The notes under the pieces were generated by a model. The model saw only the letters and a program-made list of their open reading frames with translations. It did no database searches and had not been told where the DNA came from. A stretch of DNA of 64,000 nucleotides from a phage: NCBI GenBank assembly GCA_032986305.1, contig GCA_032986305.1_3672.1; one strand, 5' to 3'. Within the stretch, counting starts at the first letter, position 1; each line of letters opens with the position of its first letter. The position numbers and the translations under genes were made by a program. Shown one piece after another: positions 39,404 to 62,838 of this stretch.

Positions 39404-40985
39404 CACACAATTAGCTGCCCGGCTAAAGTGCTGGAAGCACCTATAACACATCTTTCAACTAAATTTCCCACCACCACAATCACTTACCTCCCACACATGA
39501 CTGTTTGCTTGTTTAGTGAGCAGTCATGCCTTGACATTCTTGCCTATCCTGATAAAATTAAGTTCTTCTCTTTTCTTTTACCGAGTAATTCGGGTTTTCT
39601 GTTCTCTTCGGTTTGAAGAGGTATGGAGATACACCTGAGTGAACAGGGTGAACAACCGAACCATTGGCTATGGCATTAGCATGGCGAAGCGGACGGGTGA
39701 CGAAAGAGGGGCCGGAGGACACCAGTCACTGCCATATGATATACGGGTGATAACCTGAAGAGTCTGAATAAGTGTTTAAGTACCAGTCAGAGGAAAAGGT
39801 GAATGGTAGCCGAAGGGGGAGGGGGGTTTCTTGTATCTTTAATTTGTATATTATGTATACACTTGTAAACCAATCTCATCTGAATCTGTTTACTACACAA
39901 AGCTGATAGGGACAAATATTACCTATTAAACTTGAATTATTTATAGAAAATACCACAACACAACTTAAGTCTTTGATTTTACACACAAATCCTGCAGATA
40001 TTCACCCTCCATATTTAACATACTTGTAACATATTCCATACTCTACCTACCTGATCAATTTACCCACCAACATCCTCCATATTTTCCCTGTCTGTACCAC
40101 CCCTGCCCCGCCGGGAGTCCCGTCATATCTGGCTTTCCAGCAAATATCACACCCACAAATATCATTGCCTGAAGAGGATTTCATCTCATAATACATGCCT
40201 TGCCTGAAGAGCGCTTCATACACCACGTAAATTTTTTAATTGACCCCCTCCCCGCCGCCGGAGAGGTTGGCTTTTCCCACACAGACCTGAAGAGTCAGCC
40301 AGAAATATCTGAATGGACCCAATTCTGCCCTGTTATGAGCCGTAGCTACTGGAGTGCTGCCAGGCGGACGAAATGGGAATACTTCTCATTCTTATAACAA
40401 TTCTCAAATATCAAGGCAGTGAGTCAAATTAATAGGCGAGGCCGTTCACACAGTGGCACAACATTTGCAACCTATCTTGTGGGGGTGAATGAGAATACCT
40501 ATCATTGTGAGAATAGTTATCATTACGGGCAATTTAACATAATACCCATTATGCGCACCACTGGCGATACATACAGGGATTGATAACATGAGTTACTGTT
40601 TACGCATATAACAATTATATTTCTTACTATTTGTGTGGGATATAGTTAGCAGCCAATAGATTAGATATTGACCTGTAGACTTCCAACCGTCTAGACGTCT
40701 AAACGCCCACACAGCAAGGGTTATACATACACTTCTGAATGTAAACAGGGCCGCAAAAATGCTACCATACCAGTTTGTAAATTTTTCATGCAGCACTTGA
40801 CAAAGAGGAGAAAAACTTGTCTGACACTTTAGACACAATAGTGACATACTATGACACCTTTGACACTTTTGCATACCTGATTGTTTGCATGTCTAATAGT
40901 TTACATGGATAACTGTTCACATACTTATCATTTACATGATTGACTGTTTACACAAATATGATAAGCCATGACATTCGTTTGCATG

Positions 40986-41045
40986 AAAACAATTAACAAG
41001 ATAACAATTGACAAGCTAACAGCCAACAAGCTGACAATTAACAGG
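40986..41045. repeat. four tandem 15-bp iteron-like direct repeats
   Basis: AACAATTAACAAG / ATAACAATTGACAAG / CTAACAGCCAACAAG / CTGACAATTAACAGG. Confidence 0.6.
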
Positions 41046-41056
41046 TTAATAATATA

Positions 41057-41229
41057 TGACATAATATAAAAGCAGGGCAACTATTAGCAGATCTATAGTT
41101 GCCTTGCTTGTTATGTCATGATTAACTAAATACAAGGCAACTATGATCTGATTAATAGTTTGCAGACAAACTATCACGGGGGTGATTGTTACTGCTTTTA
41201 TATTATGTCGCGACTCCGTCGCGACATGT
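41057..41229. repeat. nested inverted repeats (cruciform-capable locus)
   Basis: 19-bp arms TGACATAATATAAAAGCAG and CTGCTTTTATATTATGTCA; inner hairpin GGCAACTAT...ATAGTTGCC; 10-bp palindrome ATGTCGCGAC..GTCGCGACAT. Confidence 0.6.
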
Positions 41230-41854
41230 CATTCGTTTGCATAGTTGCCTTATTGTTACGGATAAAATAATTGTATTGTTAATTATTTCTTATCTTTCTC
41301 TTAGTCATCTAATGATTCCAGTCAGTATAGTAATGTACAGTAAACATTAGACGACTAAATATTTCTCTGATTATAGTAACCTATCGTGACAATTTCGGAC
41401 TGTTTACGAAAAATGTTGACACCTGGGCAGGTTTATGTTATGCAGTTTGTACGAATAATTATTTTATACAGGTATTGACTATTCCGTTATTCTGTGGTTG
41501 GAATAAATACTTTGCAGGCTATAGAATGATGTTCGTACGTGAATTCTGAGATCTGTCGGCTATAGTTACACCCGATTTTTCACGTAGGACACGCTTTTTG
41601 GTTTGTGTAAGTGTATGACTTATAAGGGTTTTTAATTGTTGACAGTATGCTGAAAATGTGCATCAGGTTAAATTTTGTGCAATAGCTGCATTACGTGCGT
41701 TTTTGGAAGGAAAAACGTGTAAAAATGACCCTGCTACCACAAGATGAAAGATTATGCAATAGTTATTTTATATGTATATTTGTACAGTGTGCGGGATTAA
41801 TGGCTCGTCAATTATTCCACTTGCCAGGTAGGGCCGTTTATGGTAGGAAAAGAG

Positions 41855-41883
41855 CAAACAAAAAGAAAGGGGCCTAAGCCCCT
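41855..41883 (-). terminator. intrinsic terminator for leftward gene block
   Basis: AGGGGC-cuaa-GCCCCU hairpin; on minus strand followed by UUCUUUUUGUUUG. Confidence 0.6.
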
Positions 41884-41895
41884 TGATAATGTTTA

Positions 41896-42243
41896 TTATT
41901 TGTTTCTCATCCAGCTTTCCCAAGCTGCCTGATAATCTGCCTCACTGCGGCGGATCTCTTCTTGCTCTTCAAGCCGGATCTCTTCTTCCAGGTACCCCAG
42001 GATATCAGCCTTTTTGGTCTGGCGTAACATCCAATCATCTTTTTTACGAGTAAAGATCTTGTACGCTTTCTCGCAAACCTCCTTTTTACTACCTTTTTGG
42101 ACTTCAATAACTTTGTAGGCCATGTACTGAACTAGTTTGAGCTGATCAAGGCGTTTCATGATGTTTTCCTCTTTATGGGGTTCTGGTTTGGTGGGCCTTT
42201 TGGCCCGTGTCATTATCTTATTACTTACGGCGGCAAAATTCAA
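41896..42243 (-). CDS. hypothetical protein
   Basis: 115 aa, basic/charged. Confidence 0.45.
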   Translation of the reverse strand: MNFAAVSNKIMTRAKRPTKPEPHKEENIMKRLDQLKLVQYMAYKVIEVQKGSKKEVCEKAYKIFTRKKDDWMLRQTKKADILGYLEEEIRLEEQEEIRRSEADYQAAWESWMRNK

Positions 42244-42493
42244 GTGTTTTTAATTGATAATCTTCTTCAGCCTGAAGTACAACCGCTTCAATCATTTCGT
42301 TGGCATTGTTGAAGCCATACCCTTGAGCGAACTCATCCGCGCCACCTTTGTGATCATGTTCTGCGTTCATCGCTTCCACAAAATGGAATTCAAGATTATT
42401 GAGGTAAGGGCTTGATGTTCCGTCCTCTTTTTCGATGAGATCCCAGATAGCATTAAAACGTGATTCAACTTTTTGATTAATCCAGCTTGACAT
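42221..42493 (-). CDS. hypothetical protein
   Basis: 90 aa; own promoter and RBS AGAGGAAA. Confidence 0.45.
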   Translation of the reverse strand: MSSWINQKVESRFNAIWDLIEKEDGTSSPYLNNLEFHFVEAMNAEHDHKGGADEFAQGYGFNNANEMIEAVVLQAEEDYQLKTLEFCRRK

Positions 42494-42547
42494 AATGTTT
42501 TCCTCTCTTCTGGTTGTTGTGTGGGCACTTTTGCCCCTTCAAGATAA

Positions 42548-42576
42548 ATGTTACCTAACCACCTGGCAGATGTCAA
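42548..42576 (-). promoter_or_regulatory. sigma70-like promoter (minus strand)
   Basis: Minus-strand TTGACA - 17 nt - TAACAT, followed by GC hairpin then RBS. Confidence 0.45.
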
Positions 42577-42696
42577 CTGTTTTTATAGTTTTTATATAAC
42601 GGGCACCCCCGGTGATTGTCTCCCCCCCGTCGCCAGGTGCCACCCGTGAGATAAGTATAACAAAAAACAGGACCATTGCAAGCCCTGTTTATTATC

Positions 42697-42831
42697 TTAA
42701 AACCAGTTGCCAACCGTTTCCAATAGATCACTGACTATCAGGACAATACTGATCAGCACATACCTAACCATAAAGGGAAAGATCGCCAACATTGCCGCCA
42801 CGATCCCTATGGTGATAATTATCTTTCTCAT
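42697..42831 (-). CDS. small membrane peptide (44 aa)
   Basis: MRKIIITIGIVAAMLAIFPFMV...; co-oriented, below ORF-track cut-off. Confidence 0.3.
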   Translation of the reverse strand: MRKIIITIGIVAAMLAIFPFMVRYVLISIVLIVSDLLETVGNWF

Positions 42832-45304: not shown

Positions 45305-45361
45305 TTTGTTTCTCCTTTGGAACTTTGTCTGTGTGGTGGGGAGTGTCTCCCCGTTGATTGT

Positions 45362-45390: not shown

Positions 45391-45589
45391 CACCCCGGAA
45401 GAAAAATTTTTTTGAAAAAAGTTAGGCCCCCAGGGATCGGGGGCCGTTATCAGGTGCGTACAGCGATAAAATACATCCCTACGCCTAACAATATTTCAAG
45501 GGCGATAATCTCCAGCCATACCATAACACGGCGCGCCTTATCGGTGCGGGGCTTATCCTTGGGTGTCATCGTCTCCCCCTTTCCTCCTG

Positions 45590-47375: not shown

Positions 47376-47403
47376 ATTATACTTATTGAGATTTACTTGT
47401 CAA
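47376..47403 (-). promoter_or_regulatory. sigma70 consensus promoter (minus strand)
   Basis: TTGACA - 16 nt - TATAAT; -35 abuts stop of upstream gene. Confidence 0.6.
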
Positions 47404-50822: not shown

Positions 50823-50869
50823 TTTTGTACCTCCTCTTCAATTGTTACCTATCCTATAGCATAGGCCCA

Positions 50870-51838
50870 CCAGGTTTGCAAGCCTTCATTCTCTCCTACC
50901 TGGTCAGTTAGGTCCTACCAGGCTGGCCCCGCCAGGTTGCAGCGGTTAGCGCATCAGGTTAGAAAATTTTTTTGAAAAGTGTTGACAGCGGCCCAGCCAG
51001 GTGGCACAATATACCTATCGAAAGGACGGCAGGCACCGGTGACGGGGGAGACAACCACCGGGGATGGGCGCTGCATAAAATGAGAACGGTTATCATTATC
51101 CTTTAAAAATTTATGCAAAAATCCTTGCTTTCTTTGTCCTGTGTGATACTATAATAACAAGCCGGGGCAACAGGGGCCGGGAGACAATCACCGGGCCTGC
51201 CCGTTATTCTGCAAACGAGAATGATTATCATTCAAAATTCTAAATGAGAACTCCTCGCATTTAATAAATTTAATTAGCATGCTAATTACCCTCCGTAACA
51301 ATTTCCTATAAAACAGTATCCCATAAAATATTCCCATACAGAAATTTTAAAAATCCATTTCTGAAAACGAAAAATCGATTTCGTCCCCAAAAATTTCAGG
51401 TCGAGATCCGGAACGATTTCTAGAAAATCCGATTTAGAAAACGAAAAACAGATCGAGTACTGAGAAATTTATCGAGAAAAATTTTCAGAAAATTCAATCT
51501 TTGAAACGAAAAACAGATCGAGTACCTGGAAAGCTGCACTGCAACTTCAAGATAGTGGTTAGATTATTACCATAGAAGGTCAAGGGTAAGTGGAGGAAGT
51601 TCTAGTAGAAGGATGTGAGCATGTGTGGGAAATCTGTAATGGTGGCCTGAAATATGGTGCAAACGATAGGATGAGTGATTCAGCTTGTCGCGCCTACTCT
51701 GAAAAAATCCATTTTAGTTTTCGATCCATTTTCTGATTTTCTAAGGATTTTAAAATATCCGGCCCGGTGAAATATCAAAAGGAGGAAATCCATTTTAGAA
51801 ATCCCCCTTATACTTGATATGCCAGGAATTTTCAAGTA
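50870..51838. other. non-coding repeat-rich region
   Basis: No ORF of 60 aa or more; two paralogous promoter-hairpin units at about 50980-51240; direct repeats AAATCCATTT (x5) and GAAAACGAAAAACAGATCGAGTAC (x2). Confidence 0.5.
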
Positions 51839-59784: not shown

Positions 59785-60138
59785 TTAGTGACAATCACCC
59801 CAGTTACGACCACACAAGTATTCACCTGTGATCTGGAACGGGACTCCCATCATTTTAGAAGCTTGCCAGAAGCAATGCACCACCATTTCACCCACAGGGC
59901 TCCAGATAAGTTCAAGCTTTCCGTCATCGTTCAGGATAGGATCGTACACCGTGTTTCCGTCTCTGTCAACCACCTCGTTTCCGTTTTCATCCTTGCGTGC
60001 CTTTTTGTACTTATGACCGTCGAACACATGAAGTTTGGCTTCCTGCTCTGCCTTAAATGCTTCCAGTTCTTCAATTGTGTCGAAGGTGTACACAGTCTTA
60101 TACTTAGGTGTGTCAGGGACCTGAAGTTGGTACTCATC
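59785..60138 (-). CDS. DNA polymerase (family A, T7 gp5-like), exon 2
   Basis: Begins at motif C (H)DEYQLQV; ends ...GRNWGDCH resembling recalled T7 gp5 C-terminus GPNWAICH. Confidence 0.6.
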   Translation of the reverse strand, partial: DEYQLQVPDTPKYKTVYTFDTIEELEAFKAEQEAKLHVFDGHKYKKARKDENGNEVVDRDGNTVYDPILNDDGKLELIWSPVGEMVVHCFWQASKMMGVPFQITGEYLCGRNWGDCH

Positions 60139-60414
60139 CAATAGTTCAGGTAGGTCGTTAAGCTACCCCGCACCATTACGTGCATAGCCATACGTTTTCA
60201 CGTAGGATCGGACCATCTCATATTCCTATGATAAGCAACCACAGGAATCCTCCCATTTCGACCGCACTTGCTGGTCTACTTCCTTTCGGAATGGCCTCTG
60301 AGCGTTCGCTCTTTTGAGCGCTTCGTTGCGGATTACCTTGCCATAAGGTTTAGGCTTCCCGCAGTTAAAGAGGTTATTCGACATAGATTACTCTATGAAG
60401 CCACAATGTTATTT
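60139..60414 (-). mobile_element. group I-type intron in DNA polymerase gene (ORF-less, about 276 nt)
   Basis: Separates ...IIYYH from DEYQLQV at motif C; exon 1 ends in U, intron ends in G. Confidence 0.5.
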
Positions 60415-62838
60415 ATGGTAATAAATAATACGACGAACACCTTCATCGTACCACCCACGCTTCACCATTTGGTGGTGCATGAGTATCCCAACTAAGTCAC
60501 ACAGCGATGCACCACCATTCTGTTGGTATGCATTAAGTAAAGAGTGTTTAGATCGGGTCCAGATGGCATGACCATCAAAAGAGTAGATAAACTTCTTACC
60601 CGTTGCTTCCCAGAATTTCTCCAGATCCTCTTTACGCCCCTTAAGACCAGGGTTGGCATCCCAAAGTGCATCGATTACCCTTTGTCCCAACTCTGGAGAG
60701 ATGTCCAGCATATCTGCAACTTTATCTTTTTGTGCCCCGTACATAACCCCATACGTGATAGGTTTACCGTCGTTACGGGACACCTCTCTGCCTGCTACTT
60801 TTGTATATGCCTCAGCATTGTTTTGGTGTGCGTCTCCGTTACTTACAACATCGTAATACAGGCCGTTGTCGAACTCAAAGGCACCCCAAGCCCCGATAAG
60901 CTGCTCTAAGTTGGACCCGTCGATACCGATCTCAAAGTATCCTGGAGGAACACCCCACAAGCTACGCATCTCTTTACCCATAACCACTTTAGGAGAGGGT
61001 TTAGGCATGTTTGCACAAATACTGTGTTTCTGTCTGGAAGTGTTTGTTAATCCAGAGCTTTTAGCAGGAAGCTTATGGTCAATCTTCAAGCGTGGGTGAT
61101 TAAGAAGACCAGTATCAACCTTATCCTCCTTGATCGGATCAAGGACCGATCTGCGGTTTCGCAATGATAACCACAAGACGATATCTTTAGCCATCTCTCC
61201 GTTCAATTTTTCAAGATTCGGACATAGGTGTCCAAACGTATCTTTCAGTTGCGGAGAAGTAATAAGTGCCCTAGCTTTTCTACGTATTTTCCTGAATACT
61301 TCCTTTTTAATCCTTTCGGAGTTAGGAAAGCTTCGGAACTTGTGCACAGTTGTCTGGAACTTAGCATCAGTTTTGTTCCAGAAGTTGATAATTAGGTCAC
61401 AATACTCTGACTCCAAAAGCTCGTCCATATATGCATATACTCGTGCATCAACATCTGCATCAGGTAAAGCTTTCTTCTTGCTGTCTTTAGTTACATCCTT
61501 AGTTCTCCACATTGTCGGAAGCCAGCCAGCACTGATCAGGTATCGCTTAATGTCGTCCTGGTTGCTGATTTTCATAGGTATCTTGCAGTCCGGCATTCGC
61601 TTCTGCTGTAGATCACTTATTGCCTGATCCATCAACTCTTTAGGTAAAGGGTGTGGTGTGGAAGTGCCCTTAATATAGCCTCTCAAGAAATCAGCCATCT
61701 TATCGGGGTCTTTGCATCCCATCTCTTCACACCATTTTATCCCCATCTTGCTGACATCTCCTGTAGAGGTAAATGCTCTCTTAGGCGGGGCTTTGAACTC
61801 TAAAGCGCTCATGTCTACAGGATATCCAAGCTTATCTTTTAACCATTTCCAACCATTATTAGAGATTGTCCCGTCTTGGTTAAACGGCTTTTCAGGGAAC
61901 TTGGGCCGCTGAGACATTGACAGCTCTTTTAAAGGCAGTTGTGGTTCAACACGATCAGCGATTTCTTTCATCCACGCATCGCAACGGTCACGTAAAGCAA
62001 TAGCTCCATCTATGTCGAAATATACGCCCTGACGGGCCTGCAGCTCCATCAGGAAGTGCTGCAGCATACCTCGGCGCAATGCGTTCTTCCAGGTGATCTT
62101 CTTGAACCCTTTTGGCTTCTCTTTGGCAGGATCGTACATAAAGTTCTGCATGTCAGATTTGCCGTAGAATACACCTTTTGATTCCGCTACCAGCTCTTTC
62201 CAGAGCAACTCCTGGATGATAACGTCCTCGAATACACGATCCACATACTTCCACAACGGAAGATCGCGCCAGTCATCAATTTGAACTTTCTGGTTACCAA
62301 GGGCGTAGCCCCATGCCATAAGGCCGTGAGGACCAACAGGCTGCATTTTCTTAGTAACCGGGTTGAATACAGCGTCCGGACAACCTTTTGGTAAAGGGCG
62401 ATCAGGCCACAAGATTCGGCTCATCGCCAACGTATCAAACAGGTTAACCTGGTGGTCGTTGATAGTCCCCATACATTTAGGATCACGGAACATATCAAAA
62501 TGAATACCGGATAATCTCTCCATCAGCATAAAGTCATAACTATAGCAGTTATGGCAGTTCAAAGCTGTTGGTGACCAGTCGGAATTGCCTGTAAGCCAAC
62601 CTTCCAACTCCGAAAAATCTGCTATGCGAACTTCAAAATCTTTATAAAGAGCTTTCTTTGCCAGAATAAAGTTCTTAGCCTTCTCTATATCCTCCTCGGA
62701 GTAGTGTGTGCGGTCATTTAGAGGGAGGAACAGCATAAAACGGTTCTTATTCAGCTCTTTAAACAGGCCGCAGTGATAATAAAGATCTGGGTCTTCCAAA
62801 AGCCCGGAGGCCTCAAAATCGAAGCTATACATGCTCAT
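60415..62838 (-). CDS. DNA polymerase (family A, T7 gp5-like), exon 1
   Basis: N-terminal exo FDFEASGLLEDPDLYYHCG like T7 VSDIEANALLESVTKFHCG; motif A GIDGSNLEQL; motif B RNDGKPITYGVMYG. Confidence 0.8.

Follow-up and report, generated by a model that had tools for sequence, protein, structure and literature searches.

What is a short GC-rich sequence doing at three places in one phage genome, in both orientations and each time just behind a promoter? The question arises in a stretch of 64,000 nucleotides of phage DNA (contig GCA_032986305.1_3672.1 of GenBank assembly GCA_032986305.1; the window, hereafter), in which a 17-nt core, GGGAGACAAYCACCGGG / GGGAGACAATCACCGGG, had been singled out by a first-pass annotation made from the letters alone. 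Our answer is that the core belongs to a non-coding module of about 55 nt, whose 3' part keeps both sequence and spacing across several phage genera. Tentatively, the module would be a sequence-specific control site that gates non-coding transcription into regions resembling replication-control loci, a reading we consider quite possible and prefer to the others weighed below.

The window can be placed from its sequence: between 41.5 and 52.5 kb it shares 91-94% identity with Vequintavirus (rV5-like) Escherichia phages, HMD-6 being the top match, which assigns the genome to Vequintavirus. The core occurs exactly at 42608-42624 on the minus strand (site 3) and at 51179-51195 on the plus strand (site 2), and with one mismatch (T to C) at 51046-51062 on the plus strand (site 1). 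The three loci are therefore those first reported, with starts at 42608 and 51179 in place of "about 42600" and "about 51178". Nothing else in the window matches the 17-mer at up to 3 mismatches; shuffled sequence gives 0.03 expected matches and reached three in 0 of 100 trials. The complete genome of rV5 likewise holds three orthologous copies only, even at up to 4 mismatches. The motif search proposed by the first-pass annotation, run on the window and on rV5, returned three copies in each, a number above the shuffle expectation in the window. A sigma70-like promoter had been placed next to each copy, and we find one upstream and in the same direction in all three cases. The two orientations were indeed observed, although not as a property in itself, because each copy follows the direction of its own promoter.

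The constrained unit, however, is not the 17-mer. We built a covariance model, R1, from 28 family members and searched the window with it, which returned two full-length elements only, at 42594-42649 (minus) and 51155-51209 (plus). An information profile per position, with the elements anchored on CACC, gives a conserved unit of fixed spacing, (A)CAAnCACC-N5-TGCCYGYYAT(TC), within the non-coding module of about 55 nt. Conservation is highest at CACC, followed by 5 free positions, TGCC, Y, G, YY, ATTC, about 5 free positions and AA-N-GAGAAT-N-ATT-N-TCATT, with no insertion or deletion across about 50 nt of the profile. In the alignment of 28 elements, invariant columns are confined to the 3' part (CACC and the ~16 nt that follow it, N5-TGCCYGYYAT). 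Where TGCCYGYYAT varies, at its three Y positions, only pyrimidines occur, and they face G or R. The 5' half of the 17-mer (GGGAGACA; GGAGACAA) is moderately conserved across genera, and the 5' arm of the module carries near-zero information and is almost free to vary. Paralogues in Seunavirus-like contigs differ in their A-rich centre (AGTACAAAACA versus AGGAAAGTCA) and keep CCGGAG...CACCGG-N3-TGCC. In a distant relative on a 410-kb contig (locus L143) the block follows directly after the -10 element and the 5' arm is absent. The claim of a core conserved amid differing stems thus stands in that the 5' flank varies and a sequence is kept, with the kept sequence lying further 3' than proposed.

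Each module copy would be the beginning of a transcript. All copies in all genomes lie downstream of a predicted promoter and in its direction, beginning at about +1 to +30; in the window the core starts 30 nt (site 3), 36 nt (site 1) and 24 nt (site 2) after the -10 element. At site 3 the predicted promoter, TTGCAA-16-TATACT with a TG extension (42681-42654, minus), is part of a composite at 42654-42690 (minus) in which a hairpin, AAACAGGGC-TTGCAA-TGGTCCTGTTT, holds the -35 element in its loop and is followed by a T-run and by TGTTATACT, the extended -10. The terminator hairpin belongs to the upstream gene, and the module (42594-42649, minus; CACC-GGGGG-TGCCCGTTAT; 56.9 bits with R1, E 3.7e-14) starts about 7 nt past TGTTATACT, from about the predicted transcription start. 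Only 17 nt after the TGCCCGTTAT block comes another promoter, TTGACA-17-TAACAT (42548-42576, minus), with its own short 5' hairpin and ribosome-binding site (RBS), which serves the gene at 42221-42493. As the next gene has a separate promoter, the site-3 module is a mini transcription unit without a gene. Orthologues of site 3 are present in rV5, HMD-6, ev168, FFH2, bov22_2, A141, phAPEC8 and tuntematon, and an equivalent terminator/promoter composite stands upstream of the site-3-type copies of phAPEC8, tuntematon and the loci L126, L148, L150 and L156.

Sites 1 and 2 form a tandem pair with a spacing of 133 bp; they are on the plus strand, antisense to the neighbouring minus-strand genes, in a region of about 1 kb free of open reading frames (ORFs), 50865-51838. 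Promoter P1 of site 1 (50982-51010, plus) reads TTGACA-17-CACAAT and is TG-extended. Site 1 itself (51041-51066, plus) is a shortened, diverged copy in which the downstream TGCCYG block has decayed to TGGGCGCTGCAT, and it matches R1 only in part (15 bits, E 0.32, model positions 19-45). Site 2 carries the complete module (51155-51209, plus; CACC-GGGCC-TGCCCGTTATTC; 56.8 bits, E 3.8e-14) behind promoter P2, whose -10 region, TGTGATACTATAAT at 51142-51155 (plus), reads as an extended -10 overlapping a perfect TATAAT. P2 is absent from the list of the promoter scan because its -35 element, TTGCTT, is weak; its orthologues in other genera are canonical, for example TTGCAA-17-TATATT. A possible degenerate fourth copy, GTAACAATCACC-CCCGTGATAG, follows a hairpin and TATAAA at 41171-41196 (minus), within a non-coding region of 2.5 kb; it is kept in rV5 and HMD-6 and is not found by R1, and we list it tentatively.

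Two other readings of the module itself were discarded. A third promoter within it (GAGACA as -35, YATTCT as -10) would have a -10 whose last position varies between T, C and A and a spacer of 18-19 nt. A coding micro-ORF would lack an ATG and an RBS after the predicted start, and among relatives there are indels that break the frame, such as 2 extra nt in the loop of GAP31. Separately, HMD-6 XLV53994.1 and rV5 ORF 198/199 are annotated over the non-coding region of sites 1 and 2, and their frames are not conserved in the window.

Is the module kept among relatives, or is it the trace of one recent duplication? It occupies orthologous positions in all Vequintavirus genomes examined, and at least five other genera have a diverged version of it. 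Outside Vequintavirus, BLAST with the site-2 region aligns only 59-74 nt, namely the element and the palindrome that follows it, at 83-89% identity with unalignable flanks; the matches are in Certrevirus (phiTE, CR8), Seunavirus (GAP31, SSE121), Mydovirus (Mydo, KpS11, KPP-1), ABPH49 and W70. In Phapecoctavirus a longer stretch aligns at site 2 (~116-134 nt, 72-76% identity), and site 3 is alignable as well. A metagenome scan with the conserved pattern added 17 loci, which brings the distinct elements gathered from phages and metagenomes to about 40. When a 15-mer taken from the core was run against viral contigs, more than 120 matches came back, almost all of them chance occurrences in unrelated contigs, and the result was set aside.

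Both types of copy are present in Seunavirus-like contigs (L126 and L148; L146 and L150 of one 147-kb contig), where they are divergent and about 7.5-8 kb apart, as in the window, and where the site-3-type copies lie directly past a terminator/promoter composite. Sequence comparison identifies the two loci as old paralogues, kept in Vequintavirus, Seunavirus-like contigs and Phapecoctavirus. Site 1, found in Vequintavirus only, is probably a duplicate of the site-3 type specific to this lineage, since its 5' arm, ACGGCAGGCACC, equals the site-3 5' arm of rV5. A single recent duplication thus fails as an account of the motif. The CC/GG and AACA/AGTA variants occur at site 2 in all four combinations, and CC/GG variants are also seen at site 3.

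An origin of the module in the host was rejected, as searches of plasmids, E. coli and species genomes show an element specific to phages: there was no match in E. coli genomes and one match, at chance level, in 185,579 species genomes, and the plasmid matches were a mislabelled phage genome and Fur-box-like 28-mers. The mislabelled record is the PLSDB "E. coli plasmid" CP057073.1 (137.6 kb), a Vequintavirus genome; many UNVERIFIED "Campylobacter phage" records are likewise near-identical Vequintavirus genomes.

In the other genera, the tandem promoter upstream of the site-2 promoter drives a different, RNA-like conserved element. It is an almost invariant sequence of about 85 nt, CGCCACCCCACGGCGAAAAGGCGGGGCTAAC...GGAAGGTGGATCGCCGG, found in Certrevirus, Seunavirus, Mydovirus, W70, ABPH49 and Phapecoctavirus (for instance L122 1338-1425, L123 1325-1410 and L125 1385-1470) and neither in the window nor in rV5. 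It has a variable hairpin with a compensatory G-C/A-U pair (5 versus 4 sequences) and no Rfam match, and is a candidate structured RNA that may form a pseudoknot. There is a loose resemblance between its 3' motif, GATCGCCGG, and AATCACCGG of the core. The same genera carry a direct repeat, GTAAA-N5-GTAAA, directly upstream of the -35 element of several promoters (L122 ~1424-1445, L123 ~1418-1440, L125 ~1478-1500, and in L150 and L156 upstream of the promoter past the site-3-type copy), again absent from the window and rV5. Its spacing and sequence are those of the CpxR recognition consensus.

Past sites 1 and 2, on the plus strand, three direct repeats of about 62 nt, spaced 74 and 65 bp and each ending in AACGAAAAACAGATCGAGTAC, span 51332-51532 at 30% GC, and four copies of AAATCCATTTTAG also fall within 51351-51798. 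An iteron origin calls for at least three direct repeats beside AT-rich DNA, which is the arrangement found here, and GATCGAG-type repeats take the equivalent place in GAP31 and phiTE. Transcription from site 3 would first cross two small genes and a terminator (41884-41867) and then reach non-coding DNA from 41.9 to 39.4 kb. This ORF-poor region of 2.5 kb (39404-41895) lies between the convergent plus and minus gene blocks of the window (plus at 1-39.4 kb, minus at 40.6-64 kb) and carries the repeats AGGCAACTAT, TTGTCAATTGTTA and GTAAACAGT. It corresponds to a 2-kb intergenic region of the related phage Bas54, downstream of the site-3 position, that is reported to tolerate no transposon insertions (10.1101/2025.11.20.689424).

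At the origin-like locus the conserved block also runs in register into a palindrome resembling the binding site of the iron regulator Fur. The palindrome past site 2, GAGAATGATTATCATTCAA (AAACGAGAATGATTATCATTC) at 51217-51235, agrees with the E. coli Fur consensus at 15 of 19 positions and keeps a fixed spacing from the module, with a weaker repeat at 51242-51261. The one past site 1, GATAATGATAACCGTTCTC on the minus strand at 51082-51100, agrees at 16 of 19 and is the sole match to the consensus in the window at up to 3 mismatches (0.05 expected). Four further palindromes (TGAGAAT-N-ATTMTCA) stand at 40374-40522 in the 2.5-kb intergenic region, and phiWec188 has six past its element (L125 1600-1800). 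The site-2 palindrome shares 27 of 28 positions with a Lysinibacillus plasmid sequence 12 nt past the -10 element of a gene for a Peripla_BP_2 (siderophore-type binding) protein, which is the classical position of a Fur operator. By analogy, these palindromes would bind Fur, or possibly a phage protein of Fur-like specificity. The core itself is not palindromic, is GC-rich and matches neither the 19-bp Fur consensus nor the 7-1-7 repeat. Motifs of CRP, sigma54, PhoB, LexA, MntR and OxyR, compared by eye, gave no consistent match across genera.

Putting these pieces together, we propose that the module would be the first transcribed stretch of a dedicated, gene-less sigma70-type promoter, and that its CACC/TGCC block would be a docking site for a protein or RNA factor, which would read it either as duplex DNA or in the nascent RNA soon after initiation. 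Once the promoter fired, the docked factor would decide whether transcription enters the untranslated, repeat-rich regions downstream, that is, the AT-rich iterons at 51.3-51.8 kb for sites 1 and 2 and the intergenic region at 41.9-39.4 kb for site 3, so that control of transcription directed at an origin would be the output. The GC-rich 5' arm, folding back, would be an accessory feature. A block kept across genera beside a varying 5' flank fits sequence-specific recognition. The recognition site suggested by the first-pass annotation accordingly finds support in the pattern of conservation and none in the stems, which show no significant covariation.

Several observations weigh against this proposal. 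The annotated genes around the sites are small, early, on the minus strand and of unknown function, and Pfam and PHROGs searches with ten neighbouring proteins gave unknown-function matches only and no recognisable family; no binding factor was found among these neighbours. The promoters are predictions, and P2 of the window has no good -35 element. A pure DNA operator would not need to point in the direction of its promoter, and a pure RNA element should covary, which none of four tests supported at significance. The AT-rich, iteron-like region at 51.3-51.8 kb is a candidate replication origin by its anatomy only; it has neither a DnaA box at up to 1 mismatch nor an IHF consensus, and no initiator is recognisable among the neighbours. 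Vequintavirus site 3 has no Fur-like box, so that module and palindrome are separable. Finally, the three Vequintavirus copies share an identical 5' core half, unlike the Seunavirus-like paralogues, and part of the identity among the copies of the window may stem from gene conversion.

The alternative that survives best, which we nevertheless think unlikely, takes the module as a cis-acting leader RNA for processive antitermination or anti-Rho activity, alone or with a phage protein, on the pattern of lambda nut and HK022 put: a hairpin at the 5' end of the growing RNA, with conserved apical and 3' sequence, would modify RNA polymerase to cross terminators and long untranslated stretches. The layout suits it, with promoter-proximal elements, two to three per genome and divergent like nutL/nutR and putL/putR, whose transcripts enter untranslated regions where Rho would act and, past site 3, meet the intrinsic terminator described above. 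Much then depends on whether the module is an RNA hairpin. The stems claimed around each copy are present as predicted, GC-rich imperfect hairpins, with minimum free energies (MFE) of -23.8, -23.5 and -27.4 kcal/mol and modest z-scores against shuffles (-1.9, -1.3 and -2.6). In many lineages the common MFE fold pairs the first ~8 nt of the transcript with ...GCCYGYYAU as an outer stem, followed by an internal loop and an apex made of a small CCGG/CCGG stem and an A-rich loop of 9-11 nt. The real 5' arm pairs better than its own shuffles (mean z -1.1 over 17 representatives), folding favours the sense over the antisense strand by ~1.3-1.5 kcal/mol, a gap that G-richness alone can cause, and the rule of pyrimidines facing G or R in TGCCYGYYAT would suit a stem. 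At site 3, arm and partner change together between haplotypes, with shifted registers (ACGGGTG/TGCCCGT versus GGCAGGC/GCCTGTC).

Selection on this pairing is another matter. Swapping 3' halves between elements did not worsen folding (-15.8 kcal/mol for own halves, -15.4 for swapped ones). In a sequence-based alignment 64.7% of cells pair, compared with 63.9% when shuffled, and shuffling attained its covariation score in 29 of 500 cases. For a model-fitted alignment the figure was 113 of 500, and RNAalifold on seven site-3 orthologues gave 0 compensatory pairs. The excess of arm pairing is confined to Vequintavirus, Certrevirus and site 2 of Seunavirus/Mydovirus, with Phapecoctavirus, W70, ABPH49 and Seunavirus site 3 not above shuffles, and there is no hairpin at all in L143. 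A boxA (CGCTCTTA / GCTCTTTAACAA) was absent from 42300-42800 and 50900-51500 at up to 1 mismatch to the 8-mer, there is no boxB-like 5-nt loop, and a scan predicts no plus-strand terminator past sites 1 and 2. Rfam 15 gave nothing at the sites at its gathering scores, nor, at an E-value threshold of 1, at the sites in the window or at the phiTE, GAP31, phiWec188 and phAPEC8 loci; its only gathering-score match in the window is a group I intron (RF00028, 64.7 bits) at 60189-60424 (minus), in the DNA-polymerase gene region. Folding models thus make a 5' hairpin likely in many lineages, but it is neither universal nor demonstrably selected, and the universal feature is the block of fixed spacing.

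Next comes the possibility that the module leads a transcript which primes or activates an origin, the G-rich RNA running into AT-rich DNA where the module would nucleate or stabilise an R-loop or mark the RNA destined to be the leading-strand primer. We also hold this to be improbable, for all that the tandem P1 and P2 point into the 30% GC region with its three iterons, an architecture with counterparts in GAP31, phiTE and others. G-runs occur in all three copies, and the local G-over-C skew on the sense strand is +0.12 to +0.15 at 50900-51199, with negative values in the neighbouring intervals. Yet the G-runs fall outside the conserved part of the module, R-loops need no sequence block of fixed spacing, and site 3 has no iterons next to it. 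Skew analysis in the rV5 genome paper, which does not describe the element, located no origin (PMC3606486).

More doubtful still is the reading of the copies as free-standing small RNAs of ~50-60 nt. Each would fold into one imperfect hairpin, its A-rich loop 10-11 nt long, and would pair with or sequester a common target in the manner of plasmid countertranscripts or decoys. Such RNAs would account for modules with their own promoter and no ORF, for the separate promoter of the next gene 50 nt downstream at site 3, and for the antisense position of sites 1 and 2; GenBank records of phiTE, phAPEC8 and EdH4 do annotate terminators at these hairpins. The tails tell otherwise. Neither module, at 42594-42649 or at 51155-51209, was picked up by the intrinsic-terminator scan (GC stem followed directly by 5 or more T in 8); the tails are TTATATAA and TTATTCTG, and the stem is followed by UUAUAUA, UUAUUCU or, in other genera, GCUAUUCC. 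The loop differs between paralogues in Seunavirus-like contigs, and an antisense target was sought in the window and in rV5 without a convincing complement to the core, the best being GGTGATTGTCAC at 59788-59799 (minus), which does not lie at a start site.

A stronger version of our proposal, in which the Fur boxes and the module may form a switch coupling the iron status of the host to phage replication, is a long shot. Here Fur bound just past the block would stop the promoter-proximal transcript; with Fur free of iron and a phage or host factor on CACC-N5-TGCCYG, transcription would pass into the iterons, and the origin would be activated or primed. Site 3 would do likewise for the essential 2.5-kb intergenic region. 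If true, a strictly lytic phage family would have an origin gated by a host metabolite.

That the copies have no specific function, as leftovers of ordinary 5' stabiliser hairpins that were duplicated or underwent gene conversion, is highly improbable: short GC-rich 5' hairpins do follow most early promoters, the variant combinations at sites 2 and 3 suggest recombination or conversion, and the site-1 arm is identical to the rV5 site-3 arm, but the block keeps its spacing across genera with unalignable flanks, and the module is restricted to these loci, ordinary hairpins of the region having no sequence in common with it.

These ordinary hairpins also explain a relative of the core that had been proposed at 45339. 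The hairpin there, GGGGAG-ACA-CTCCCC at 45338-45352 on the minus strand, shares only GGGAGACA with the core, an overlap due to chance; R1 gives no match, and we reject the kinship in favour of an ordinary hairpin of a 5' untranslated region. Nearly all strong early promoters lead into such a hairpin, short, perfect and GC-rich, which comes 5-10 nt past the predicted start and is followed by a CA-rich spacer, RBS and ATG; on the minus strand they include those with -35 elements starting at 47403, 49213, 49893, 43917, 43652, 42576 and 45390. Composite terminator/promoter cassettes between small early genes form a further recurrent design (42654-42690 and 45425-45445, both minus, and others), resembling the PeSL cassettes of T4-like phages: the -35 element falls within the terminator hairpin or directly beside it, and the -10 comes after a T-run. 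Motifs of the form CCAGGT(T/G), with the Dcm site CCWGG inside them, cluster upstream of site 1 at 50865-51003 and occur at 42560-42567 (minus) and 42632-42639 (plus). The sequence GCCAGGTG recurs in the spacers of P1 and of the promoter past site 3, with its complement in the site-3 5' arm.

The hosts of this module are phages of practical use. Isolates of rV5-like phages (Vequintavirinae) and of the related Stephanstirmvirinae are widespread and are used in therapy and biocontrol collections, and the module is one of the few non-coding sequences kept throughout the group. It marks the iteron region and the entry to the intergenic region reported as insertion-intolerant, adjoins sequences resembling binding sites of a host global regulator, and offers mutable targets for the origin, for the switch from early functions to replication and for any link to host iron physiology. 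The GenBank "terminator" labels and the doubtful or spurious ORFs over these loci could be corrected on the same basis.

How does the module compare with known systems? The primary origin of T7 consists of the tandem promoters 1.1A/1.1B and an AT-rich region, and oriF and oriG of T4 are R-loop origins. Like these transcription-dependent origins, the locus of sites 1 and 2 has tandem promoters directed into an AT-rich, non-coding region; it differs in that its promoters are of the host sigma70 type and are accompanied by iterons and Fur-like palindromes, and the T7 and T4 origins are not known to have a conserved sequence block between promoter and AT-rich region. Countertranscript and primer RNAs act at plasmid origins, as RNA I/II of ColE1 and CopA of R1 illustrate. 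The module shares with them short, promoter-driven, hairpin-forming non-coding transcripts (predicted here) beside repeats of a replication-control kind, and lacks their terminator and a complementary loop partner; on the strand opposite, neither a rep gene nor a primer target was identified.

With lambda nut and HK022 put the module has in common a promoter-proximal position, a transcribed state (predicted here), two copies past divergent promoters and a sequence conserved between copies. It departs from lambda boxB, a 5-bp stem with a purine-rich loop of 5 nt, in its predicted loops of 9-11 nt and irregular stems, from the lambda system as a whole in that an N-like gene was not recognised, and from put in having a single irregular hairpin instead of a two-hairpin fold supported by covariation. 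The cassette at 42654-42690, like those upstream of site-3-type copies in other genera, has the make-up of the PeSL cassettes of T4-like phages, composites of terminator and promoter (PMC4122927, PMC2839356): between early ORFs, a terminator stem-loop is fused with a sigma70 promoter of the early class. The conserved motif, in contrast, lies downstream of the cassette and is not part of it, and most cassettes of the window precede other, unrelated hairpins. The palindromes past sites 1 and 2, at 16/19 and 15/19, are like operators with a Fur box (GATAATGATAATCATTATC), a resemblance of their sequence and not of the core. In the literature we found no description of the element or of an origin in this phage group. 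The module and its fixed-register link to Fur-type boxes thus appear to be undescribed, whereas the kind of element they represent, a promoter-proximal cis site beside origin repeats, is a familiar one.

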